Source: an uncultured Acidimicrobiaceae bacterium (GTDB lineage: Bacteria; Actinomycetota; Acidimicrobiia; Spongiisociales; UBA5794). From it: 64,000 nucleotides of DNA. The notes beneath the pieces are model-generated. The model was not told the DNA's origin, searched no databases, and was given only the letters and a program-made list of their open reading frames with translations. The position numbers and the translations under genes are program-made. Shown piece by piece: positions 3,822 through 64,000 of this stretch (the first letter of the stretch is position 1; the number at the start of each line of letters is the position of its first letter). Location: NCBI GenBank assembly GCA_964569015.1, contig CAZMSN010000005.1, positions 2,846 through 66,845 on the forward strand, given 5' to 3'.

Positions 3822-5327
3822 ATGGCGCCCATGTCCATCGCCGATCTGCAGACGCGCTCCTCGGGTCTGTTGCTGCATCCCAGCAGCCTGCCCGGCCCCT
3901 ACGGCATCGGCGACATCGGACCGGCAGCGGCCGCCTGGGTCGACTTCGTCGCCGCCACCGGATGCCGGATGTGGCAGATCCTCCCGCTCGGCCCCACCGG
4001 GTACGGGGACTCGCCCTACCAGTGCTTCTCTTCGTTCGCCGGCAACCCCTACCTCGTCAGCCCCGACCTGTTGCTCCAAGACGGCCTCGTCTCCGACGAG
4101 GACCTCGCCGCCTACCCAAGACTGCCCGCCGAACGGGTCGACTACGGCGCCGTGATCCCGGCCAAGCTGGCTCTGCTCGACCGTGCATTCGACCGCTTCG
4201 GCGACGCTGCCCCCGCGCTGCGGGACGAATACAGATCCTTCGCCGACGCCGAGCGCCGCTGGCTCGATGACTTCGCGGTGTTCATGACGCTCAAGGATCT
4301 CCACGGCGGAGCACCCTGGATCTCGTGGGAGCGTCCCTTGCGCCTACACGACCCGGAGGCGATCGCCGACCTGCGGCGCCGCCACGCCGACGCCGTCGGC
4401 CGTCACGTCTTCCGCCAGTGGGTCTTCCATCGCCAGTGGGCCATCCTGCGACAGCATGCCGCCGCAGCAGGCGTCGCCATCATTGGCGACATCCCGTTCT
4501 TCGTCGCCGGAGACTCCGCCGACGTCTGGGCCAACCGCCATCTCTTCCAGCTCGACGCGGAGGGAAACCCCTCGGTGATCGCCGGCGTCCCACCCGACCT
4601 GTTCTCCGACACCGGCCAGCGCTGGGGCAATCCCCTCTACAACTGGGAGCGTCACGAGGCCGACGGATACACATGGTGGGTCGACCGGATCGCAGCGACG
4701 CTTTCACAGGTCGACATTCTCCGCATCGACCACTTCCGAGCCTTCGTCAACTACTGGGAGATTCCCGGCGGGGCGCCCACCGCCGAGGTCGGCCGCTGGA
4801 TGGACGGCCCGGGAGAAGCGGTCTTCACCGCCGTGCGCAGCGCCCTCGGCACCCTACCGATCATCGCCGAAGATCTGGGAGAGCTCGATCCGAGAGTCCC
4901 GGCGCTGCGCGACAAGCTCGGCCTCCCAGGAATGAAGGTCCTCCAGTTCGCGTTCGACGGCGACCTGACTCACCCGTTCCTTCCCCACAACTACCCCCCC
5001 ACCTGTGTCGTGTACACCGGAACCCACGACAACAACACTGTCAAGGGCTGGTGGAACTCGGCCCCGCCCGAAGAACGCCGCTTCGCCAGGGACTACTTGG
5101 GCGTCGACGAGAACGACCCGGTGGAAGCGTTCCTCGAGGGGGTGTGGAGTTCGGTGGCGCTGCTGGCCATCGCCCCTATCCAGGACGCGCTGCGCCTTGG
5201 GGCGGAAGGTCGCATGAACAGTCCCGGCACCACGAGCGGCAACTGGCAATGGCGTCTCGCCGCCGACGCGCTGACAACGCCGGTGCACGACCAAATCCGC
5301 GATCTCAACCGCCGCTATGGACGCTGA
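3822..5327 (+). CDS. malQ: 4-alpha-glucanotransferase (amylomaltase)
   Basis: GH77 N-terminal signature GLLLHPSSLPGPYGIGD and YGDSPYQ. ATG at 3822. Confidence 0.85.
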   Translation: MAPMSIADLQTRSSGLLLHPSSLPGPYGIGDIGPAAAAWVDFVAATGCRMWQILPLGPTGYGDSPYQCFSSFAGNPYLVSPDLLLQDGLVSDEDLAAYPRLPAERVDYGAVIPAKLALLDRAFDRFGDAAPALRDEYRSFADAERRWLDDFAVFMTLKDLHGGAPWISWERPLRLHDPEAIADLRRRHADAVGRHVFRQWVFHRQWAILRQHAAAAGVAIIGDIPFFVAGDSADVWANRHLFQLDAEGNPSVIAGVPPDLFSDTGQRWGNPLYNWERHEADGYTWWVDRIAATLSQVDILRIDHFRAFVNYWEIPGGAPTAEVGRWMDGPGEAVFTAVRSALGTLPIIAEDLGELDPRVPALRDKLGLPGMKVLQFAFDGDLTHPFLPHNYPPTCVVYTGTHDNNTVKGWWNSAPPEERRFARDYLGVDENDPVEAFLEGVWSSVALLAIAPIQDALRLGAEGRMNSPGTTSGNWQWRLAADALTTPVHDQIRDLNRRYGR

Positions 5328-5352
5328 CCTCTCGCGCTCGAGGCCCTCCTGA

Positions 5353-5646
5353 TCAGGGAGCGACCTCGACCAGCTCGTTGGTCGTCAAGTCGAGCACCCG
5401 TTCCACGTCGCTGCGGCTCTCGGCGATCCATCGGGCGAGACTCTCCCCCTGACGCCGCACCAGCCACCAGGCAACCTCGTTGGAGCCGCTCTCTCGATGC
5501 TCGCGCCAGCGGGACCGCGCAGTGGCGATCGCTATCCTCTCCGACTCGAAGGTGCCCAGCAAGGTCTCTTCCGGACCCCGATAGGGCTTTCCCGGCGCGG
5601 GCATGGGCTCGCGATACTCGGTTGCCGTGAAGGCCTCGCTGCTCAT
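5353..5646 (-). CDS. Hypothetical small protein (97 aa)
   Basis: ORF only, with GC-rich third codon positions. No recognisable domain. Confidence 0.25.
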   Translation of the reverse strand: MSSEAFTATEYREPMPAPGKPYRGPEETLLGTFESERIAIATARSRWREHRESGSNEVAWWLVRRQGESLARWIAESRSDVERVLDLTTNELVEVAP

Positions 5647-5799
5647 ATACCCTCCTCAAGCCTGGCCGAATGCTACTACTCACAGCGGCAAGCGCGCGTG
5701 CCGATCAGAGGAATGATCACCACTGGGGAGACCCGGTCTGGCAGCTCCGGCTCGACGCCCGGCGGCAGCCACATCGCGGCCGCACCAGACCCCGGAGCG

Positions 5800-5871
5800 T
5801 GGGCGCTGGCAGGATTGAACTGCCGACCTCTTCCGCGTCAAGGAAGCGCTCTCCCACTGAGCTAAGCGCCC
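5800..5871 (-). tRNA. tRNA-Val (anticodon GAC)
   Basis: Reverse complement GGGCGCTTAGCTCAGTGGGAGAGCGCTTCCTTGACGCGGAAGAGGTCGGCAGTTCAATCCTGCCAGCGCCCA folds as a cloverleaf. Anticodon loop TTGACGC, T-loop TTCAATC. Confidence 0.9.
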
Positions 5872-5895
5872 TGGGACCGGCTGGAGACCGGTTCG

Positions 5896-5967
5896 AGGCG
5901 ACGCCGGGAATCGAACCCGGGTAAAAGGTTTTGCAGACCTTTGCCTAAACCACTCGGCCACGTCGCC
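5896..5967 (-). tRNA. tRNA-Cys (anticodon GCA)
   Basis: Reverse complement GGCGACGTGGCCGAGTGG...AAGGTCTGCAAAACCTT...CCGGGTTCGATTCCCGGCGTCGCCT. Anticodon GCA, discriminator U. Confidence 0.9.
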
Positions 5968-8176: not shown

Positions 8177-8461
8177 TCAGTCGATGATCGGGATCTCGAT
8201 CACCTGGCCCGGCACGATCACGCTCGAGTCCATGCCATTGATCGTCCGGATGGTGGCAACCACCTCCCGGACATCGCCTCCGTCGGGCGACAGCTCGGCG
8301 GCGATGGCCCACAGCGTGTCTCCCGATCGCACCAAGTGGACGGTGGTGTCCGAGCCGGCCCCGGCTGCGTGGACGGCGGAAGCGAGGAGGAGCACCAGAG
8401 CCGCGATCACGATGGAGATGACGACCAGCACGCGTGATGGAGTGGTCATGTGTCCGGGCAT
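8177..8461 (-). CDS. LysM-domain secreted/membrane protein, divergent from lexA
   Basis: TM helix followed by a LysM domain (VHLVRSGDTLWAIAAEL...). ATG 8461 is preceded by GGAGGAG. Confidence 0.7.
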   Translation of the reverse strand: MPGHMTTPSRVLVVISIVIAALVLLLASAVHAAGAGSDTTVHLVRSGDTLWAIAAELSPDGGDVREVVATIRTINGMDSSVIVPGQVIEIPIID

Positions 8462-8629
8462 CGTGGTGTCTCCTCCCCTTCCCGCTTCCAACCGTGTTTC
8501 GGGTCTCTCCTGAGGCCCGCTGTCAGACCGGGATCGTGGGCCCGGCCCTGCAAGCAACGTATCGCCGGGGTGTGACAGGATCTCCGGCGACCCGAGGGCC
8601 TGTGTCCGGACCTGATTTGCATCTCCCGA

Positions 8630-8644
8630 TCGAACACGTGTTCG
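8630..8644. promoter_or_regulatory. LexA (SOS) box 1: TCGAACACGTGTTCG
   Basis: Perfect match to the Gram-positive/actinobacterial Cheo-box CGAAC-N4-GTTCG. Lies in the lexA/LysM divergent intergenic region. Confidence 0.75.
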
Positions 8645-8660
8645 CATATGGGGCACGCTA

Positions 8661-8675
8661 TCGAACATATGTTCC
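8661..8675. promoter_or_regulatory. LexA (SOS) box 2: TCGAACATATGTTCC
   Basis: Cheo-box-like palindrome, 17 nt downstream of box 1. Confidence 0.7.
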
Positions 8676-8684
8676 GGTGTCAAG

Positions 8685-8699
8685 TCGAACATATGTTTG
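8685..8699. promoter_or_regulatory. LexA (SOS) box 3: TCGAACATATGTTTG
   Basis: Cheo-box-like palindrome about 55 nt upstream of the lexA ATG. Confidence 0.65.
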
Positions 8700-8754
8700 G
8701 TAGATCGCGAAATCGCAACTACGATGGCCGGGTCGCGTTGAGAAAGGCACCGCA

Positions 8755-9387
8755 ATGGACCCCAAGCAGCTCACCGGTCGCCAGCAGCAGATCCTGGACT
8801 TCATCCTCGAGACGGTGCGAGACCGGGGCTACCCACCGGCAGTGCGCGAGATCGGCGCCGCCGTCGGGCTCAGCTCGCCATCGACCGTACACAGCCACCT
8901 GTCGGCGCTGGTCAAGGCCGGCTGCATCCGGCGCGATCCCTCCAAGCCCCGCGCGATCGAGGTGCTCAACACCGGCGAGGATCTCCGCTCTTTGCACCGC
9001 GCTCCCGTGCGCGACGTCCCCCTGGTGGGCCGCATCGCGGCCGGATCGCCCATCCTCGCCGAGGAGGACATCGACGAGATCTTCCCCCTTCCCGTCGAGT
9101 TGGTGGGCAACGACCCTGCCTTCATGCTGAGGGTGCGCGGCGAGTCGATGATCGACATCGGCATCTTCGACAACGACTACGTCATCGTGCGCCGCCAACC
9201 CGATGCCCGAGACGGCCAGATCGTCGCCGCTCTGGTCAACGGCGAGGAGGCGACCATCAAACGTTTGCAGCGCATCGACGGCCGGGTGGTCCTCAAGGCT
9301 GAGAATCCGGCGTTCCCGCCCATGGTGTTCTCCGAGGGCGTCGAGATCCTCGGTGTCGTGGTGGCAGTCATGCGCCGTGTCATGTGA
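8755..9387 (+). CDS. lexA: LexA repressor
   Basis: Winged-HTH N-terminus, Ala-Gly cleavage site (RIAAGSPI) and S24 peptidase Ser/Lys motifs (GESM...KRL). ATG is preceded by GAAAGG. Confidence 0.9.
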   Translation: MDPKQLTGRQQQILDFILETVRDRGYPPAVREIGAAVGLSSPSTVHSHLSALVKAGCIRRDPSKPRAIEVLNTGEDLRSLHRAPVRDVPLVGRIAAGSPILAEEDIDEIFPLPVELVGNDPAFMLRVRGESMIDIGIFDNDYVIVRRQPDARDGQIVAALVNGEEATIKRLQRIDGRVVLKAENPAFPPMVFSEGVEILGVVVAVMRRVM

Positions 9388-9393
9388 CACGGC
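9374..9393. terminator. Perfect palindrome gccgtgtca-tg-tgacacggc spanning the lexA stop codon; candidate bidirectional terminator between lexA and dapF
   Basis: 9-bp arms with a 2-nt centre. Sits between convergent genes. Confidence 0.3.
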
Positions 9394-9407
9394 GTGTCGC
9401 ATGAGCC

Positions 9408-10166
9408 TCAGTCGACGGATCCGCCGAAAACGAGGTTCGCCGGCCCTTCGATCCAGGCCGTCCCGTCCTCCATCTCGACCATCATCGTCCCGCCCGGGAG
9501 ATCGACCGCCACTCGCGCATCGGTGAGACCCTGCCGGCTCGCCAGGAAGGCGGTCGCGGCGGCTCCGGTGCCGCAGGCCAGCGTCTCGCCCACTCCTCGC
9601 TCCCACACGCGCAACTCGATGCGGTCCCTTCCCCGCACCGCAGCGAATTCCACATTGGTGCCTGCCGGGAAGATGGGATCGGTCTCGATCTGCGGACCCA
9701 GAGTCGTCACCGGTGCCAACGCCGGATCGTCCACGAACACGATCGCGTGCGGGTTGCCCATGCCCACCGGATGCACCTCGACACCTGCCACCCGCAGCGA
9801 CGCCAACCGATACTCCTGCGGAACGCCGAGCATCGCCCGCACAGTGCCGTCCGGCCTCACCTGTGCCGGTCGCTCCCCCACGGCCGACTCGATGATCAGA
9901 TTCGGGCCCTCCACCCAGCCGCGCATCACCGCCAGCCGGGCAACACAGCGCAGCCCGTTTCCGCACATCTCGGCACTGCGCCCATCGGCGTTCCAATAGC
10001 GCATCCGTACCCGGTCCGAGCCGAGCGGGGTCACCTCGAGCACCCCGTCCGCCCCGACCCCGCGCTTGCGCTCGCACCAGCGCACGATGTCCGCCGCCGC
10101 CATCGTGACCGGGCCTTCGACCACGATGAAATCGTTGCCGAGACCCTCCATCTTCACGAAATCCAT
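9408..10166 (-). CDS. dapF: Diaminopimelate epimerase
   Basis: NDF motif (GLGNDFIVVE) and catalytic Cys motifs (CGNGLRC, ACGTGAAA). ATG 10166 is preceded by GGAGG. Confidence 0.85.
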   Translation of the reverse strand: MDFVKMEGLGNDFIVVEGPVTMAAADIVRWCERKRGVGADGVLEVTPLGSDRVRMRYWNADGRSAEMCGNGLRCVARLAVMRGWVEGPNLIIESAVGERPAQVRPDGTVRAMLGVPQEYRLASLRVAGVEVHPVGMGNPHAIVFVDDPALAPVTTLGPQIETDPIFPAGTNVEFAAVRGRDRIELRVWERGVGETLACGTGAAATAFLASRQGLTDARVAVDLPGGTMMVEMEDGTAWIEGPANLVFGGSVD

Positions 10167-16086: not shown

Positions 16087-17379
16087 TCACCGGCCGCTCG
16101 GTTCACGACGATCCCAATGGGTGTGGTCGGCGCTCCCCCACCACGCCCCGGCAAGGGCCAACCGCGCCAGGTGCAGCGCCGCCGTCGTCGTGTACGCCCG
16201 CACCCGCTCCCGATCACCCGGAACCTGCAGCGATCGCGCCCGCGTTCCCTCCGGCGTGTGCACCGCGACAACCATGCTGCCCACCGGCTGTTCCTGCGGA
16301 TCGGGCCCCGCCGAGCCGGTGGTGGCGATCGCCACGTCGGCGCCCAGCAGGGCGGCCACTCCCTCCGCCATGGCACACGCCGTTGCCTCGCTGACGACGC
16401 CTTCCGTGTCGATGATCGCTCGCGGCACTCCCAGCACGCCGGTCTTGACATCCTCCTGATAGGCAACGATCGATCCCCGAAAGACCTTCGACGCGCCCGG
16501 CACCGAGGTGAGGCGGGCCGCCACCATCCCCGCGGTGGCCGATTCGGCCGTGGCGAGCTTCCAGCCATGCGCCTCCACGAGCTCGAGCACCACCCGCTCG
16601 ATCGTGTCCTCGTCGATCCCGAACACCTGCGTCCCGAGACGGCGCCGCACCTCGGCCTCGACCGGAGCGATGAGCCCGAGCGCCTCCTCCTCGGTCGCCG
16701 CCTTGGCGGTGAGCCGTACCTTGATCTCGCCGGACGAGGCGAGGAATGCCACCGTCGGGTTGACCGAGGTCTCGTACAGGTCATCGAGGATCTCTGCGAT
16801 GAGCGACTCCGACTCTCCCCAGGTCCGGATCAGTCGACTCACCACTACTGCCTCCCCACTGCCGCTCTCACGGCGCAGGAACGGCACGATGTCGTTGTCG
16901 AGCATCGGCAGCATCTCGGCCGGAACGCCGGGAACGGCGAACACCCACGCCCCCTCGATGCACATGCGCAGCCCGGGAGCCGTGCCCTTGGTGTTGGCGA
17001 TCAGCTCGGCGCCCTCCGGATACTGGGCCTGGCGCAGATTCGACTCGGGCATCTCGCGACCGCGCTCCGCCCAGCGACGGCGCAGCGTATCGGCCTGCTC
17101 CTCACTGAAGTCCATCTCTGCCCCGGCGGCGGCACAGATCGCCTCTCGTGTCACATCGTCCTGGGTCGGCCCGATGCCACCGGTGATGATCAAGGCGTCT
17201 GCTCGCCCGATTGCCAGGCGCACAGCTTCGGCGATGCGTTCCACGTTGTCGCCGACGACCGCCTGGTGGTAGTGATCGAATCCCGCCTCGGCGAGGCGGG
17301 CCCCGATCGTGGCGGCGTTGGTGTTGACGATCTGGCCCAGCAACAACTCCGTACCGACCGCGAGCACTTCGACGATCAT
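16087..17379 (-). CDS. cinA: Competence/damage-inducible protein CinA (MoCF-binding domain plus nicotinamide-nucleotide amidohydrolase)
   Basis: MIVEVLAVGTELLLGQIVNTN N-terminus and C-terminal CinA/PncC domain. ATG 17379 overlaps the rimO stop (ATGA). Confidence 0.85.
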   Translation of the reverse strand: MIVEVLAVGTELLLGQIVNTNAATIGARLAEAGFDHYHQAVVGDNVERIAEAVRLAIGRADALIITGGIGPTQDDVTREAICAAAGAEMDFSEEQADTLRRRWAERGREMPESNLRQAQYPEGAELIANTKGTAPGLRMCIEGAWVFAVPGVPAEMLPMLDNDIVPFLRRESGSGEAVVVSRLIRTWGESESLIAEILDDLYETSVNPTVAFLASSGEIKVRLTAKAATEEEALGLIAPVEAEVRRRLGTQVFGIDEDTIERVVLELVEAHGWKLATAESATAGMVAARLTSVPGASKVFRGSIVAYQEDVKTGVLGVPRAIIDTEGVVSEATACAMAEGVAALLGADVAIATTGSAGPDPQEQPVGSMVVAVHTPEGTRARSLQVPGDRERVRAYTTTAALHLARLALAGAWWGSADHTHWDRREPSGR

Positions 17380-18734
17380 CTCGCCCCCGCTCGCTTGGCG
17401 GCTGCCTCCCTGGAGGCCGTCACCTTGCCGGCGAGATCCAACCCGTAGCAGCCCGTGATCTCTGCCTCGAGCCACTCCCCCGGCCGTCCCTCGTCCAGCA
17501 GGATCACCCCATCGATCTCCGGTGCCTCCCGATACGAGCGGCCCACTGCCTGGCCCTCCTCGACCTGGTCGACCAACACCTCGAGCACCCGACCCACCTG
17601 CGCCGCGTTGCGGGAGGAGGTCACGTCGTCCTGGATCTCCTGGAGGTAGCGGAGCCGCTCCGCCTTCACCTCCTGAGGGAGTTGCCTCTCGAAGCCCGCC
17701 GCCGGCGTCCCCTCCTCCGGTGAGAACGGAAACAGACCGACCCAATCGAGCAGGGCCTCCCTGAGGAACTCCCCGAGGCTCTCCACGTCTTCGTCACATT
17801 CGCCGGGGAAACCCACGATGAAGCTCGACCGCAACGCCGCCTCGGGCGCCTCGCGACGGATCCGGGCGATCAGATCGAGATGGCTCTCACCACTCCCGGG
17901 CCGTTTCATTGCCCGCAACAAGCGCTCCGATGAGTGCTGAAGCGAAATGTCGAAGTAGTCCGCCACCACCGGGCTCGCCGCCATCGTGGAGATGAGGGCG
18001 GGCCGCACCTCGCGCGGGTACAGGTAGTAGAGGCGGAGTCGCCGCAGACCCTCCACGTCGGACACCGACTCCACCAGTTCCCTCAGCCCGCCGGACACGC
18101 CGATGTCACGCCCGTAGCCGGCCAAGTCCTGGGCGACGAGCACGATCTCCCCGACGCCTGCCGCGACGAGATCCACGATCTCTTCCCGGATGTTGGCGGG
18201 CGGTCGAGACCGCTGCCTGCCGCGGAACTGGGGGATGGCACAGAAGGTGCACGACCTGTCGCATCCCTCCGCCACCTTGACATAGGCGTACGGCATCGTC
18301 GGGGTGGGACGCCGCACCTGATACAGGATGTCCATGTGCGATCGGGGAATGGAGCAGACCCGCCGTGGCATCCACTGTGTGAGAGCGTCCAGCCGATCCA
18401 CCAGCTCGGAGTAGCGGTCGAGGCCGATGACGGCGTCGGCCTCCGGCAACGCTTCCTCGAGCTCCCGCTCGTAGCGCTGTGCCATGCATCCGATCACAAC
18501 CAGCTTGGCACCGTCCTTGCGGGCGGCCGACAACGCCAGGATCGTGTCGATCGATTCCCGGCGGGCCGACTCGATGAAGGCGCATGTGTTCACCATCACC
18601 ACGTCGGCGCGCTCGGGCGCCACCGCCCGCCGATAGCCGGCATCGTCGAGCATGCCCGTCACCTTGGCGGAATCGACCTCGTTCTTGGAACAGCCCAGCG
18701 TCGTCAGCCAGACAGAGGGAACGGTGCAGGACAT
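17376..18734 (-). CDS. rimO: Ribosomal protein S12 methylthiotransferase
   Basis: MTTase N-terminus (LGCSKNEVDS), radical-SAM CDRSCTFC and a TRAM domain. Confidence 0.85.
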   Translation of the reverse strand: MSCTVPSVWLTTLGCSKNEVDSAKVTGMLDDAGYRRAVAPERADVVMVNTCAFIESARRESIDTILALSAARKDGAKLVVIGCMAQRYERELEEALPEADAVIGLDRYSELVDRLDALTQWMPRRVCSIPRSHMDILYQVRRPTPTMPYAYVKVAEGCDRSCTFCAIPQFRGRQRSRPPANIREEIVDLVAAGVGEIVLVAQDLAGYGRDIGVSGGLRELVESVSDVEGLRRLRLYYLYPREVRPALISTMAASPVVADYFDISLQHSSERLLRAMKRPGSGESHLDLIARIRREAPEAALRSSFIVGFPGECDEDVESLGEFLREALLDWVGLFPFSPEEGTPAAGFERQLPQEVKAERLRYLQEIQDDVTSSRNAAQVGRVLEVLVDQVEEGQAVGRSYREAPEIDGVILLDEGRPGEWLEAEITGCYGLDLAGKVTASREAAAKRAGAR

Positions 18735-57998: not shown

Positions 57999-58268
57999 GC
58001 GGCCGTGTCCTCGAAGGGAGCCAGGCGAAAGGATCCCCGGCGGACGACTCTCGGCTCGGGCCTGCGGCGCGAAGGTGCCGGCACGACCTACACCAAGAGA
58101 CGGCCCAGCCTGCCGGATGCACCGCTGCGCTCACTACGATGAGGGCGCCGCCGGGATGCTGATGGAGCGGGTGCCTGTGGTGAGAGCCACCGGCCAACCA
58201 GTTGATGCAACACCGGCACGCACCGTGGTCGAGCATTGTCCTGGAGAGAAGCGGTAGGGGAATCGAAA

Positions 58269-58604
58269 ATGAGAATCGCGGTACCAGTGAGTGACGGCGT
58301 CCTCTGCCGCCACTTCGGCCACTGCACGACGGTGGCCTTGTTCGAAGTGGACCCCGACACGTCGACCATCCAATGCCGACAGGACCTGATCCCGCCGCCT
58401 CACGAGCCCGGAGTCCTTCCCCGCTGGCTCAACGAGCAGGAAGCCACGGTCATCATCAGCGGCGGCATGGGAAGACGGGCACAGGACCTCTTCGCCCAGA
58501 ACGGCATCACCGTGGTCGTTGGCTCGGTCGGCGAGCCCGAGACGATCGTCGAGGACTACCTGGACGGCCGGTTGGAGACGGACGACAACTTCTGCGACCA
58601 CTGA
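58269..58604 (+). CDS. NifX/NafY-like dinitrogenase FeMo-cofactor-biosynthesis-domain protein
   Basis: MRIAVPVSDGVLCRHFGHC signature of the NifB/NifX C-terminal domain family. ATG 58269 is preceded by GGAGAG/GGGGAA. Confidence 0.6.
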   Translation: MRIAVPVSDGVLCRHFGHCTTVALFEVDPDTSTIQCRQDLIPPPHEPGVLPRWLNEQEATVIISGGMGRRAQDLFAQNGITVVVGSVGEPETIVEDYLDGRLETDDNFCDH

Positions 58605-58642
58605 CCCGTCCGCCCGGACACCGGGCAGAAAGACAGAACCTG

Positions 58643-59545
58643 GTGAGGACCGAGCTCGAATGCATCCCGTGTCTCTTGAGGCAGAGCCTCGAGGCAGCCC
58701 GGTTCGTCACCGAGGACCCTGCCATCCACGAGCTCGTGATGCGGGAGACCTTGCGCACGGTGGCCGACCTGGACTTCCTCGAGTCGCCACCCACGATTGC
58801 GCAGGTCGTTCACCGCAGGCTGCGTGAGCTCACAGGTGACCCCGACCCCTATCGGTCGGCCAAGGCTGCCGCCAATCGCCTCGTCATGGCATTGCTGCCG
58901 GAGCTGGCCGCCGACGTGGAGCGGGCGCCCGACCCACTGCTGGCAGCGGTCCGGCTGGCGATCGCAGGCAACGTCATCGACCTGGCAATAACCGCCGATC
59001 TCACCGAGGCCGTGACCTGTCGGGCGCTGCAAGACGCGTCACGCGAGCCGTTCCACGGCGAGTGGACGGAGTTCCGCCGAGCACTGGCCGACGCGACGGA
59101 CATTCTCTATCTGGCGGACAACGCCGGCGAGATCGTCACCGACCGCCTGCTCATCGAGCAGATCGGCCCGGCGCGGGTGACCATGGCCGTCCGTGGCCAC
59201 GCGGTCATCAACGACGCAACTCTCGCCGATGCGCGCGATGTCGGTCTCTGCGAACTCGTCGAGGTGGTTTCCAACGGCTCGGACGCGCCGGGCACGATCC
59301 TCGACGACTGCGATGCCTCGTTTCGCGAGCGATTCCGGAACGCCGATCTGCTGATCGCCAAGGGACAAGGCAACTTCGAGACGCTCAGTCACGCCGAGGA
59401 CGACGAGGACACGAAAGACGGCGTCTTCTTCCTCTTCAAGGTGAAATGCCCGGTGGTCGCCGGCCAGGTCAACCTGCCGGTCGGTTCCCAGGCGCTGGTT
59501 CAAGCCCATCCGACCCGGCCCGTGCTCGATCCCGGAACCGCCTGA
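58643..59545 (+). CDS. DUF89/ARMT1-family metal-dependent phosphatase-like protein
   Basis: N-terminal ELECIPCLLRQ and C-terminal DNAGEIV...KGQGNFE motifs. GTG 58643 lies 38 nt after the NifX-like stop. Confidence 0.55.
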   Translation: MRTELECIPCLLRQSLEAARFVTEDPAIHELVMRETLRTVADLDFLESPPTIAQVVHRRLRELTGDPDPYRSAKAAANRLVMALLPELAADVERAPDPLLAAVRLAIAGNVIDLAITADLTEAVTCRALQDASREPFHGEWTEFRRALADATDILYLADNAGEIVTDRLLIEQIGPARVTMAVRGHAVINDATLADARDVGLCELVEVVSNGSDAPGTILDDCDASFRERFRNADLLIAKGQGNFETLSHAEDDEDTKDGVFFLFKVKCPVVAGQVNLPVGSQALVQAHPTRPVLDPGTA

Positions 59546-59643: not shown

Positions 59644-60648
59644 TCACGACCCGGTCAGGGCGAGCCCCACCATGCCGACGATGGCGATCACCGCGCCCAC
59701 GAAATACCACGGCGGCGGCCGGTGCTTCTCCAGCCACCTGGCGAACGGAACGCTGATCAGGGGGGCAACGGCGGCGATCGCCTGTACCTTGCCCGGCTGC
59801 ATGGTCTGCAGTGCCCAGACCATGCAGGTGACGCCGAGGATGGGGCCAAACAGGGCGTTGGCGCCGACCCAGGGCCATGCCTTCTCCGGCGGCGACTCGG
59901 CGCTCTCGTCGGCATCGCCGGCATCGGCGGTGACGCCTTCGACGGGGGTCCCCGCCGGACCGAGCGCGGCCCGGGCCCACGAAACGCGCCGGGAAGCCCA
60001 CCACACCGCCAGGAACACCAACAGCGCCACACAGAAGCCGCCGGTGAGGCGATCGAAGGCGGCCGTGAACACGTAATCGAAGCTGCTGCCGACCTTCACC
60101 TTCGGGCCGTCGGGAACAGCCTGCACCGTCTGCTGAACAGCGATCAGAGCCTTGCGGCTGATCACAGCGCTGATCCCCTGTGCGATCGCCGCGATGCACG
60201 CCAGCGTCACACCACTCGCCGCCCCGACCCGCCGGGCGGCGCCCCTCACGTAGGGGAGCAGGCCGATGACCACTCCGGCCAGGACCACCAGGCACCAGAC
60301 GATCTCCTCGCCGGTGAGCCGATCGGAGAACCACACCCAGGCCAGCACGGCAGCGGCGAAGGCGGCCACGGTCTCTACCACCAGTGAGGCCAGCGGCGCC
60401 CCCAGCGGCGGCAGTGCCCGGAACATCGCCAGCCCCCCGATGCCGAACCCGATCGCCCCCGCGGTAGCGAACATCCAGTACTCGGTGCCGAGGCCCCTGC
60501 CGACGGTGAATGCCAGCACGCCGATCACACCCAGGGCAATCAGCAGCCGCAGCAGATTGGCCCTCACAAACCCGAGCAGCCGGATGGCGCGTCGGGCACA
60601 GACCGGGGTGATGCCGTAGAACAGTGCGGTGAGGCTGGCCCCGATCAA
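59644..60648 (-). CDS. EamA/DMT-superfamily transporter
   Basis: About 10 TM helices in two EamA repeats. TTG start overlaps the stop of the NuoE-like gene. Confidence 0.65.
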   Translation of the reverse strand: MIGASLTALFYGITPVCARRAIRLLGFVRANLLRLLIALGVIGVLAFTVGRGLGTEYWMFATAGAIGFGIGGLAMFRALPPLGAPLASLVVETVAAFAAAVLAWVWFSDRLTGEEIVWCLVVLAGVVIGLLPYVRGAARRVGAASGVTLACIAAIAQGISAVISRKALIAVQQTVQAVPDGPKVKVGSSFDYVFTAAFDRLTGGFCVALLVFLAVWWASRRVSWARAALGPAGTPVEGVTADAGDADESAESPPEKAWPWVGANALFGPILGVTCMVWALQTMQPGKVQAIAAVAPLISVPFARWLEKHRPPPWYFVGAVIAIVGMVGLALTGS

Positions 60649-61148
60649 CCTGCGGCACCCCGGAGCGCAGCGACGATGTCGGTGACCTTCTCCGGGGTGA
60701 GGTCGCCGTATGCCTCGTCGTTCACCAGCATCGCCGGGGCCTGGTCACACATGCCGATGCAGTTGGCCCACTCCAGCGTGAACAGTTCGTCCTCGGTTGT
60801 CTCCCCAAATGACACGCCCAGCTCGCGCTCGAGCTGATCGGCCACCGCCTGCTTGCCTGCGAACTCGCAGCTGAGCGTCCGGCACATCCGGATCACATAG
60901 CGGCCGGTTCGTCGTGTGCCGAGGAACGAGTAGAACGTGGCCACCCCATAGACCTCGACGGGTGGCACGTCCAGCCGGTCGGCGATCACCTGCATCGCCA
61001 GGTCGCCGATCTCCCGATACCGCTCGCGTAGGTCCTGCAGCACGGGGATGAGCGCATCGCGGCTCCGTCCGTGGCGCTCCACCAGAGCGTCGATCTCGTC
61101 GACCAGCTCCGCCTGTTGCGCGGTCAGCTCGGGTGGCACGGTCAGCAT
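60645..61148 (-). CDS. NuoE-like [2Fe-2S] thioredoxin-fold subunit (HydC/HndA-type)
   Basis: CRTLSCEFAG ... CIGMCDQAP cluster-binding motifs. The ATG overlaps the HydA stop. Confidence 0.8.
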   Translation of the reverse strand: MLTVPPELTAQQAELVDEIDALVERHGRSRDALIPVLQDLRERYREIGDLAMQVIADRLDVPPVEVYGVATFYSFLGTRRTGRYVIRMCRTLSCEFAGKQAVADQLERELGVSFGETTEDELFTLEWANCIGMCDQAPAMLVNDEAYGDLTPEKVTDIVAALRGAAG

Positions 61149-63118
61149 GCGGAATCCTCCCTCTCACGATCACCGCCGGCGGCTATGAACGTCCCCCGCG
61201 CGGTGTACTCGGTGTGCAGCAGATGGTGACTGGTGTGCCCACACGGGCCGTCCGTGAGCAGCTCCTGGTAGAGACGGAGCACCGCCGGGTTCTCGTGGCT
61301 CTTGCGTGCCCGGCCCGCCTCGCCGTAGGCGGAATCCTCGGCGTAGATGGCCCTGGCCCGTGCTGCGCGGATCTCCGGAGTCGTCGGGATCGGCTGACCG
61401 CCACCGCCGAGGCATCCTCCCTCGCACGCCATGAACTCGATGAAGTGACACTCGCTGAACTTCCCACCCGCCTTGATGTCCTCCATCACCTTGTGGGCGT
61501 TGGCGGTGCCGTGCGCCACCGCCAGCTTCAGCGTCGCTCCCCGCAGCCAGTCCCAGTTGGGAACCAGGTGCGCGATCAGCTCGGGCACCGGGCCCACCTC
61601 ATCGGGGATCGTCAGCTCGACATAGCGGCACCCTTCGAAACCACGGACCGGCACGATGTCGGCGTGCTCGAACAGGCTCTCCACTTTCGTTCCGGTGACG
61701 AACTCGACGACGCTGCGCAGTGCCGCTTCCATGACGCCGCCGGTGGCCCCGAAAATCACGCCTGAACCGCTGGCGGTCCCGAACGGGTCGTCGAAATCGC
61801 TCTCGGGCATGTCCGGCAGGTGGATGCCCGCCTCTCGGATCATCTTCGCCAGTTCGCGGGTGGTCAGGGCGCAGTCGACGTCCTGGTAGCCGCTGTCGCT
61901 CATCTCGGGACGCTCGCACTCGTACTTCTTCGCCGCGCACGGCATCAACGACACGGAGACGACGTTGGCGGGATCGAGGCCGTTCGCTTCGGCGTACCAG
62001 GTCTTGATCAGCGATCCGAACATCTGCTGCGGGCTCTTGCACGTCGACACGTTCGGCAGGTACTCGGGGTAGAAGTGCTCGATGTACTTCACCCAGCCCG
62101 GGCTGCACGACGTGAACTGGGGCACCGGCTGCGAATCGTCGCCGAGCACCAGGTTCTTGTAGAGCCGCAGGATGAGCTCGGTGCCCTCCTCGATGATGGT
62201 GAGGTCGGCGGCGAAGTTGGTGTCGAAGACCCGGTCGAAGCCGCACTCCCGCAATGCCGTGTTCATGTGCCACGTCATCGGGGTGCCCGGCTCCTGGCCA
62301 AACTCCTCACCGATGGCCGACCGCGGCGCCGGGGCGGTCTGGATGACGACATGCTTGGCGGGATCCTCGATGGCGACCCACACCTCGTCGGTGGAATCGA
62401 CCGCCTGGAGCGCCCCGGTCGGGCAGCGGTTGATGCACTGCCCGCAGTTGATGCAGACCACGTCGGCCAGCGGCAGGTCCAGGTAGGTGGAGATCGTGGT
62501 CCGGTCGCCGCGACCGACTACGCCGACCGCGCTCACGCCTTGCATCTCAGCGCAGGTGCGCACGCAACGCAGGCACTGGATGCACTTGTTCATGTCCCGC
62601 ACGATCGAGGAGCCAATGCGGTCGATCGGCAGGGGCGGCCGGTCACTGGTGCCGAGCCGGAACGAATCCACGCCGTACTCAACAGCGAGGTCCTGCAGCT
62701 CGCAGTTGCCGTTGCGCACACAGGTGATGCAGGCGCCCTGGTGCTCGGAGAGCAGCAGGTCGATGACGTCCCTGCGGGCCCTGCGGACCCGAGAGCTGTG
62801 AGTGTGCACCTCCACCGGCGCCGTGATCGGGAAGGCGCAGCTCGCCTGGAGGTTCCGCTGCCCGGAGACCTCGACCACACAGACACGGCAGACGCCGGCC
62901 TCGGGCAGGTCCGGGTGGTGGCACAGTGTCGGGATGGTGATACCGCACTGCTGGGCGGCATCGAGGATGCTCGTCCCCAGAGGGACCCCCACCTGCCTGC
63001 CGTCGATGGTGACCTCAACTGTCCCGATGGCTGCGGTGTCTGCTCCGCCTTCGAGGGTTCCGACGCTCGTCTCAGGCGCTGCCGCATCGCGGTCGGGGCA
63101 GGAATCTTGTTTGCTCAT
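61142..63118 (-). CDS. hydA: [FeFe]-hydrogenase catalytic subunit (HydA, M3 type)
   Basis: N-terminal 2Fe-2S and His-ligated and 2x[4Fe-4S] ferredoxin-like domains (CIQCLRCVRTC, CINCGQCINRCP). H-cluster motifs L1 FTSCSPGW (variant), L2 MPCAAKKYE, L3 EFMACEGGCLGGGGQP. ATG 63118 is preceded by GAGGAG. Confidence 0.85.
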   Translation of the reverse strand: MSKQDSCPDRDAAAPETSVGTLEGGADTAAIGTVEVTIDGRQVGVPLGTSILDAAQQCGITIPTLCHHPDLPEAGVCRVCVVEVSGQRNLQASCAFPITAPVEVHTHSSRVRRARRDVIDLLLSEHQGACITCVRNGNCELQDLAVEYGVDSFRLGTSDRPPLPIDRIGSSIVRDMNKCIQCLRCVRTCAEMQGVSAVGVVGRGDRTTISTYLDLPLADVVCINCGQCINRCPTGALQAVDSTDEVWVAIEDPAKHVVIQTAPAPRSAIGEEFGQEPGTPMTWHMNTALRECGFDRVFDTNFAADLTIIEEGTELILRLYKNLVLGDDSQPVPQFTSCSPGWVKYIEHFYPEYLPNVSTCKSPQQMFGSLIKTWYAEANGLDPANVVSVSLMPCAAKKYECERPEMSDSGYQDVDCALTTRELAKMIREAGIHLPDMPESDFDDPFGTASGSGVIFGATGGVMEAALRSVVEFVTGTKVESLFEHADIVPVRGFEGCRYVELTIPDEVGPVPELIAHLVPNWDWLRGATLKLAVAHGTANAHKVMEDIKAGGKFSECHFIEFMACEGGCLGGGGQPIPTTPEIRAARARAIYAEDSAYGEAGRARKSHENPAVLRLYQELLTDGPCGHTSHHLLHTEYTARGTFIAAGGDREREDSAC

Positions 63119-63143
63119 GCTGATTCTCCTCTGCTTCCTGCGC

Positions 63144-64000
63144 TCAGACCGCCGCAGCGGCGCGGTCGAGGATCTCGGACCGGTGATGCTCGACGATGGA
63201 CAGGAAGACGTTCGGACTGGATTGCCCCAGCCCGCACTTCGAGGCCACCTGCATCGTGCTTCCCAGGTCACACAACTCTTGGAGGTAGCCGGTGGAGCAC
63301 TCCCCACGTTTCAGCATGCGGATCCCGTTCAGGATCTTGACGTTGCCCACCCGGCACGGAGTGCACTGCCCACAGGACTCGTCGACAAAGAACTCCATGA
63401 AGTTCTCGGCCACGTCCAGCAGGTCGCGGTCCGGGCCGATCACGATCACTGCACCCCCGGTTGCCACGTCCTCGTAGCAGATCCCCCGGGAGAACTCGGC
63501 GGCGGGCACGCATCGCCCGGAGGCTCCCCCGACGACGACCGCCTTGGCTTCCTCGCCACCGGCCGCTGCCAGCAGGTCCCGGATCGTGACTCCCATCGGG
63601 AACTCATACACACCCGGGCGTTCCACGTCACCCGAGATGCTCAGCAGCTTGGGACCGGTGGAGCCATCGGTGCCGATGCCCTTGAACCACTCGACGCCGT
63701 TGGCCAGGATGGCAGCCGCCCAGGCGAAGGTCTCGACGTTGTTCACCGTCGTCGGCAGCCCGTGCAGGCCGGTGCTCACCGGGAAGGGGGGACGGTTCCG
63801 CGGCTCGCCCCGCTTGCCCTCCAGGCTCTCGAGCAACGCCGTTTCCTCTCCACACACGTACGCTCCCGACCCCATGTGAATGTGGATATCGAAGTCGAAA
63901 CCCTCGTTGCCCATGACGCCGGCTCCGAGCAGGTTCGCGTTCCGGCGCCGTCCCAGACATTCCTCGAGCCGGTCCCGCAGATAGGTGTACTCGGCCCGCA
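63144..64000 (-). CDS. NuoF-like FMN/NADH-binding flavoprotein subunit of the hydrogenase (HydB/HndC), 5' end beyond window
   Basis: GSGAYVCGEETALLESLEG and 4Fe-4S ESCGQCTPCR motifs. The reading frame stays open to the window edge. Confidence 0.8.
   Translation of the reverse strand, partial: RAEYTYLRDRLEECLGRRRNANLLGAGVMGNEGFDFDIHIHMGSGAYVCGEETALLESLEGKRGEPRNRPPFPVSTGLHGLPTTVNNVETFAWAAAILANGVEWFKGIGTDGSTGPKLLSISGDVERPGVYEFPMGVTIRDLLAAAGGEEAKAVVVGGASGRCVPAAEFSRGICYEDVATGGAVIVIGPDRDLLDVAENFMEFFVDESCGQCTPCRVGNVKILNGIRMLKRGECSTGYLQELCDLGSTMQVASKCGLGQSSPNVFLSIVEHHRSEILDRAAAAV

Follow-up and report, generated by a model that had tools for sequence, protein, structure and literature searches.

Does a serine in place of a cysteine ligand of the H-cluster betray a damaged sequence, or is it a natural form of the [FeFe]-hydrogenase active site? 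The question is raised by hydA, the gene of an [FeFe]-hydrogenase catalytic subunit, located in a stretch of 64,000 nucleotides from an uncultured Acidimicrobiaceae bacterium (GenBank assembly GCA_964569015.1, contig CAZMSN010000005.1, positions 2,846 to 66,845 of the forward strand), hereafter called the window. The strict textbook form of the L1 motif is TSCCPxW, with two adjacent Cys, whereas the window HydA reads TSCSPGW. A preliminary description of the sequence had left two explanations side by side: a sequencing or assembly error, or a natural Ser-ligated or otherwise atypical H-cluster. The Ser variant is real and natural, the phenomenon is known, and the window hydA adds one more gene to a large family that normally carries Ser.

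The L1 serine and its conservation

Positions 62102-62104 read GCT on the plus strand, the codon of the minus strand being AGC, Ser339 of HydA. The coding-strand frame around it is CAG TTC ACG TCG TGC AGC CCG GGC TGG, translated as QFTSCSPGW. Base 62104 is a T on the plus strand and an A on the coding strand, and a single base separates AGC from the TGC of a Cys; direct reading thus returns every detail of the preliminary description on this point. The roles it had assigned, proton relay for the first Cys of the motif and ligand of the [4Fe-4S]H subcluster for the second position, agree with Katsyv et al. 2023 (PMC10021017), who name Cys299 of Thermoanaerobacter kivui (Cys299Tk) and Ser301 of Acetobacterium woodii (Ser301Aw) as ligand of the A1 cluster.

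The best solved-structure match of HydA obtained with HMMER is A. woodii HydA1 (PDB 7q4v_A), which itself reads TSCSPGW in the aligned position. Ser339 is aligned with Ser301 of this enzyme, with Cys299 of T. kivui HydA1 (8a6t, TSCCPSW) and with Cys300 of CpI from Clostridium pasteurianum (TSCCPGW). The motif is free of gaps in all three alignments, which rules out the offset that had been put forward as a possible refutation, namely a shifted alignment in which both Cys are present.

Among the 120 closest homologues, 68-100 % identical to the window HydA, L1 reads TSCSPGW in 114, SSCSPGW in three and TSCCPGW in three, which places Ser at this position in 117/120. A scan of one genome per GTDB species yielded 80 related loci, and Ser is encoded in all of them, by TCG (45), AGC (20), TCA (10), TCT (4) or TCC (1), that is by 60 TCN and 20 AGC codons. 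These loci include Actinomycetota (Acidimicrobiia, Demequinaceae, Thermoleophilia and the cultured Actinotalea fermentans), and come also from Planctomycetota, Ignavibacteriota (Melioribacter, including isolates), Fibrobacterota, Hydrogenedentota, Verrucomicrobiota, Armatimonadota, Chloroflexota and Bacteroidota. Ser is therefore a conserved character and not a random substitution, and the use of both Ser codon families is the mark of selection acting on the amino acid. Closer to the window, the 90 %-identity cluster of its HydA holds three members from independent JGI/IMG metagenome assemblies, all with PQFTSCSPGWVKY: P0272 and P0273, 99.7 % identical to the window HydA, and P0274, 655 amino acids long, whose identity was not scored. 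The orthologue at locus L001, from an Acidimicrobiaceae metagenome-assembled genome with a HydA 83 % identical, carries PQFTSCSPGWVKY too; the comparison with sister genomes proposed earlier has hence returned Ser in L001 as well as in the 80 related loci.

An error in sequencing or assembly would mean that the true codon is TGC (Cys) and that the A of the coding strand is a miscall. The one-base distance between AGC and TGC is favorable to this explanation, as are the three close homologues that do read TSCCPGW. However, the TCN codons of 60 loci are out of reach for a T-to-A miscall of TGC, and Ser is also present in the three independent assemblies, in the genomes of cultured organisms (Actinotalea fermentans, Melioribacter) and in the A. 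woodii protein of known structure. Together, these observations all but exclude an error, and the natural alternative is supported by the conservation in the family and by the equivalence with A. woodii HydA1.

This position has been encountered with a Ser before. Katsyv et al. 2023 (PMC10021017) described that Ser301 of A. woodii replaces the Cys ligand of the [4Fe-4S]H cubane, without apparent effect on the Fourier-transform infrared (FTIR) signature and with similar activity. Di Rienzi et al. 2013 (PMC3787301) noted TSCSPGW, from genome data, in two ‘confurcating’ hydrogenases of Melainabacteria ACD20. Neither a systematic catalogue of L1 variants nor a study dedicated to the Ser ligand came to light in the literature searched, where just the passing mentions of these two papers were found. 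With A. woodii HydA1 and the Melainabacteria sequences, the Ser variant is therefore already documented, and it is characterised in one enzyme. The strict TSCCPxW is too narrow as a definition, because A. woodii HydA1, a member validated by its structure and its biochemistry, departs from it likewise, and it gives no grounds for excluding the window HydA. In HydDB, the L1 motif of group A is reportedly written TSC[CS]P.

The spread of Ser beyond the close family has been followed by a HMMER search run exhaustively over 1.84 billion cluster representatives, from which the best 150 representatives at 50 % identity were aligned with the HydA of the window, A. woodii and T. kivui. Among the sequences with an intact motif set (proton-relay Cys, Pro, L2 and L3 all present), 15 carry Ser, the window and A. 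woodii included, and 89 carry Cys. In a neighbour-joining tree of the H-domain, the Ser sequences are interspersed among the Cys sequences. Fitch parsimony, a rough estimate on such a distance tree, places Cys at the root and requires at least 10 Cys/Ser changes for the 101 leaves. A column-by-column Fisher test over the alignment found no compensating Cys in the H-domain of the Ser enzymes; a new Cys does not appear in any column of the Ser set, and a substitute ligand has therefore not been recruited. The two top correlates of Ser are a Gly at the x position of L1 (PGW), found in 14/15 Ser and 36/89 Cys sequences, and a Val at residue 281 of the window HydA, each with p ~1e-4, uncorrected for the 346 columns and for phylogeny. 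The idea that Ser marks the NCBIfam ‘A6’ family, or the non-bifurcating enzymes, has also been considered and rejected. Two HydA1 proteins score above the cutoff of the corresponding model, NF040763 (‘NADH-dependent [FeFe] hydrogenase, group A6’): that of T. kivui, which has Cys (852 bits), and that of A. woodii, which has Ser and is bifurcating (872 bits). Assignment to ‘A6’ thus depends neither on the Ser/Cys state nor on bifurcation.

The representative library also contains, outside the window, a protein of 4122 amino acids (P0121) in which seven HydA H-domains stand in tandem, six with a period of 444 amino acids, and flavodoxin-like segments lie in between. Its L1 motifs are TSCCASW or TSCCAGW, the Pro being replaced by an Ala. 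Its organisation suggests either a eukaryotic (protist-type) polyprotein or an artefact of assembly.

Proposed role of Ser339 in the H-cluster

HydA passes the NCBIfam model of group A [FeFe] hydrogenases (TIGR02512, 466.5 bits for a cutoff of 405.95), and its two hydrogenase domains are recognised by Pfam with E-values of 1e-84 (Fe_hyd_lg_C, PF02906) and 5e-19 (Fe_hyd_SSU, PF02256). Its L2 follows MPCxxKxxE and its L3 follows ExMxCxxGCxxGGGxP, both motifs being found as the preliminary description had given them (Table 1). HydA hence presents what is expected of a Ser-ligated enzyme, a Ser in the column of Ser301Aw/Cys299Tk together with the other three Cys ligands. Aligned to CpI, HydA also retains the residues that correspond to Glu279, Glu282, Arg286 and Ser319 (...iieEgtElilR..., ...nvStckspqq...); with Cys338, the counterpart of the proton-relay Cys299 of CpI, in place, the whole proton-transfer pathway is therefore intact.

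The favoured reading, with a probability of about 85 %, is that Ser339 would be a true residue, under selection, in a functional HydA of group A (M3 type, HydABC class), occupying the slot of the first Cys ligand. By analogy with A. woodii HydA1, its oxygen would bind an iron of the [4Fe-4S]H cubane, to which Cys394, Cys565 and Cys569 would provide the remaining three ligands. As these three ligands, Cys338 and the proton pathway are intact, a normal H-cluster is proposed to assemble, which would make HydA catalytically competent, as A. woodii HydA1 is. This reading draws on the residue, its family-wide conservation, the Ser301Aw equivalence and the intact other active-site motifs, all observed here, and on the ligation, FTIR and activity data published for A. 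woodii.

Several points weigh against it. The carry-over from A. woodii HydA1 would span only 49 % identity. The ligand role of Ser301 is the statement of the authors (PMC10021017), and the cryo-electron microscopy maps of A. woodii HydABC may fall short of resolving an unambiguous Fe-O(Ser) bond. HydA passes NF040763 marginally (768.8 bits for a cutoff of 765). Finally, no HydE/F/G maturase genes are found among the 30 predicted genes scanned (14334-64000), where the sole radical-SAM protein is MiaB-like (17376-18734); the maturases must be encoded elsewhere in the genome or in the first 14 kb of the window, outside the scan.

That HydA is a degenerate, non-catalytic or purely sensory paralogue with a decaying H-cluster site is highly improbable. 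Its departure from the canonical TSCCPxW could be taken this way, all the more so as some distant representatives display a heavily degraded L1 (e.g. SSASPAW, SSNSSGW) with altered L2/L3. In HydA, however, a single position differs, and nothing is altered in L2, L3, the proton-relay Cys or the Glu/Ser/Arg pathway; PAS or sensory domains are absent from the protein according to Pfam, hydA sits in a conserved hydB-hydA-hydC operon, and the A. woodii enzyme with the identical L1 motif is highly active. A different explanation, which appears quite unlikely, is adaptive tuning: O-ligation would shift the [4Fe-4S]H potential and hence the catalytic bias, the H2 affinity or the robustness towards O2 and reactive oxygen species, and would have been repeatedly selected in multimeric hydrogenases coupled to reduced nicotinamide adenine dinucleotide (NADH). 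The exchange of a Cys for a Ser ligand usually shifts the potentials of Fe-S clusters, and the near-absolute conservation of Ser in the family, across many phyla and with both codon families, the recurrent switches inferred among the representatives and the slight preference for Gly at position x of L1 can all be read in the same direction.

Conversely, tuning is weakened by the results of Katsyv et al. 2023 (PMC10021017), who observed no apparent spectroscopic effect and similar activities; the statement of the preliminary description that Ser would alter redox and catalytic properties finds no support in these published data. Moreover, the three Cys revertants inside the family and the frequent switching suggest a near-neutral interchangeability, Ser occurs both in the bifurcating A. 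woodii enzyme and in a predicted non-bifurcating family, so that no single physiology is tracked, and the Gly association has the uncorrected p-value given above. A broader proposal is tentative and unlikely: Ser ligation would have been selected repeatedly, become fixed in a whole NuoEF-coupled family that crosses phyla and reached ~1/7 of the related HydA clusters, and would tune the cubane potential, the catalytic bias or the oxidative robustness for H2 metabolism coupled to NADH, the Gly at the L1 x position being part of an accommodating geometry.

Ligation of a normal, active H-cluster by Ser339 is thus the preferred explanation, and the finding does not overturn current understanding. 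Its consequences concern annotation in the first place. A published survey of bifurcating enzymes (PMC6085437) dropped the HydA/HytA homologues without a strict L1 TSCCPxW. A filter of this type would lose the whole Ser family (Actinomycetota, Planctomycetota, Ignavibacteriota, Hydrogenedentota, Fibrobacterota and other phyla) together with A. woodii HydA1. In annotation and surveys, TSCCPxW should be relaxed to TSC[CS]PxW, the strict rule being unfit for calling [FeFe]-hydrogenases non-functional. As for enzymology, a Ser ligand mentioned in passing for A. woodii turns out to be the rule in a large family, with many switches between Ser and Cys in HydA, and the Ser/Cys family constitutes a natural panel for probing the effects of O-ligation on the H-cluster.

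The hydB-hydA-hydC operon and its surroundings

The genes follow each other on the minus strand in the order hydB, hydA, hydC (Table 1). The open reading frame (ORF) of hydA extends over 61142..63307, with the ATG at 63118 (MSKQDS...) as the likeliest start; the resulting protein of 658 amino acids is identical to the database protein P0001. HydC matches the NuoE-family models of NCBIfam, all under their cutoffs, the best being NF005722 with 137 bits for 141.

Table 1. Features of the hydrogenase operon in the window, with coordinates on the plus strand or residue numbers of HydA.
Feature	Position	Strand	Evidence and remarks
hydB, 3' part, NuoF-like flavin mononucleotide (FMN)/NADH subunit	63144..64000	-	GSGAYVCGEETAL, GGASG; gene exceeds the window end
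hydA, 658-aa M3-type [FeFe]-hydrogenase catalytic subunit	61142..63118	-	Pfam, NCBIfam, PDB 7q4v_A E=1.4e-174
HydA domains	Fer2_4 33-108; NADH-G_4Fe-4S_3 115-152; 2x[4Fe-4S] 169-237; Fe_hyd_lg_C 255-573; Fe_hyd_SSU 582-641 (residues)		Pfam
L1 motif TSCSPGW, residues 336-342	62093..62113	-	Cys338 is the conserved proton-relay Cys
Ser339 codon AGC	62102..62104	-	slot of the first Cys ligand of the [4Fe-4S]H subcluster (CpI Cys300, T. kivui Cys299, A. woodii Ser301); direct read, alignments, Katsyv et al. 2023
L2 motif MPCAAKKYE, residues 392-400	61919..61945	-	Cys394 is a cubane ligand; Lys397 conserved
L3 motif EFMACEGGCLGGGGQP, residues 561-576	61391..61438	-	Cys565 and Cys569 are cubane ligands, one bridging to [2Fe]H
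hydC, NuoE-like thioredoxin-fold [2Fe-2S] subunit	60645..61148	-	Pfam 2Fe-2S_thioredx E=1.2e-46; start overlaps the hydA stop by 7 nt

The type of enzyme can be approached through HydB. The window HydB stops 7 residues past the NuoF [4Fe-4S] domain and the C-terminal ferredoxin domain is absent. At L001, where the gene order is that of the window, the complete HydB (4700-5896, ~393 amino acids) consists of the NuoF core only, and possesses neither the C-terminal 2x[4Fe-4S] nor the N-terminal [2Fe-2S] by which a bifurcating HydABC is recognised. Deletion of the HydB C-terminus has been reported to result in low bifurcating activity (Katsyv et al. 2023, PMC10021017). In the PDB, HydB is matched best by the NAD-reducing HoxF (5xf9_A).

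Losey et al. 2020 (PMC7311640) distinguished the two classes of HydB by the NADH site, Ala/Glu-x-Met in bifurcating and Thr/Ser-x-Lys/Ser/Ala in non-bifurcating enzymes, by the residue near the FMN, Phe in the former and Tyr in the latter, and by the GGPSG of the SLBB domain, which is confined to bifurcating HydB. In the alignment, HydB of the window family displays GEPGTFKDR, GSGAYVCGEE and GGASG where the bifurcating A. woodii HydB has GDPGAFMDR, GAGAFVCGEE and GGPSG; the Thr..Lys of the NADH site has been read in the L001 orthologue, that portion of HydB lying beyond the window. The family hence exhibits the non-bifurcating set (Thr/Ser with Lys/Ser/Ala, Tyr, no GGPSG) and not the bifurcating one. 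An upstream HydB is present in 73 of the 80 related loci, with Tyr in 72 and neither Phe nor GGPSG in any, and these 73 ORFs are also devoid of a ferredoxin-type CxxCxxCxxxCP motif. Bifurcation is not expected from a HydB without ferredoxin domains and with Tyr, GGASG and T-x-K. This bare NuoF-like subunit and its signatures suggest that the window enzyme is an NADH-linked, non-bifurcating, ferredoxin-independent HydABC, which points, at the level of the genome, to an H2 metabolism that is linked to NADH and probably does without ferredoxin in this Acidimicrobiia-like actinobacterium.

Two local features of HydA deserve mention. Residue 566 (61421-61423, minus strand), located between the two L3 Cys ligands, is a Glu (EFMACEGGC), as in L001, the nearest orthologue from Acidimicrobiaceae; a Pro occupies this position in 118 of the 120 close homologues (EFMACPGGC and similar). 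The H-domain also harbors an insertion of ~20 residues (…IPDEVGPVPELIAHLVPNWDWLRGA…; residues ~504-528, 61535-61609, minus strand) relative to the HydA of A. woodii, T. kivui and CpI, and kept in L001. Together with an N-terminal extension, it probably explains the length of 640-650 amino acids in the family and the marginal NF040763 score.

The window has a G+C content of 67.6 %, the nearest relatives are Acidimicrobiia, and nearby genes are ordinary chromosomal ones, coding for RecA, FtsK, RNase J, DapB, an Lhr helicase and a glutamate dehydrogenase. A gene of the EamA family (drug/metabolite transporter; 59644-60648, minus strand) shares 4 nt with the end of hydC, an overlap that suggests a common transcript with the hydrogenase genes; L001 is arranged likewise (EamA gene at ~8400-9412). 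Downstream of the operon and converging on it, the region 58236-59545 (plus strand) encodes a small NifX/NifB-like ‘Dinitrogenase iron-molybdenum cofactor’ protein (PF02579), then a protein with an ARMT1/DUF89 damage-control phosphatase domain. Nitrogenase genes were not seen in the part of the window surveyed, and a link of this pair to metallocluster handling is speculative.

Comparison with characterised hydrogenases

The closest known counterpart is HydA1 of A. woodii, from the bifurcating HydABC(D) complex (PDB 7q4v, 7q4w and 8a5e; PMC10021017). Both proteins share the M3 architecture, the TSCSPGW motif and intact L2, L3 and proton pathway, and both pass NF040763. Their identity is nevertheless limited to 49 %, and the window protein possesses in addition the N-terminal extension, ~30 amino acids long, and the H-domain insertion. 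The partner subunits differ further: A. woodii HydB carries an N-terminal [2Fe-2S] and a C-terminal 2x[4Fe-4S] domain, with Phe, GGPSG and A-x-M, whereas HydB of the window family is without both domains and has Tyr, GGASG and T-x-K. The order hydB-hydA-hydC of the window genes is another point of difference.

T. kivui HydA1 (8a6t) and CpI (e.g. 4xdc) resemble the window HydA in fold, domain order, L2, L3 and proton-relay residues, but hold a Cys in the ligand slot (Cys299Tk and Cys300, respectively), and CpI is monomeric and ferredoxin-dependent. The two Melainabacteria ACD20 hydrogenases (PMC3787301) exhibit the same L1 as the window HydA, yet an L3 Cys is lost to Ile in both, which makes them more degenerate, while L3 of the window is intact. 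At the level of the operon, S. wolfei (Syntrophomonas wolfei) Hyd1ABC and S. aciditrophicus (Syntrophus aciditrophicus) HydAB (PMC7311640) combine, as the window operon does, a NuoE/NuoF-like diaphorase module with the non-bifurcating HydB signatures. In S. aciditrophicus HydB and HydC are fused, unlike in the window.

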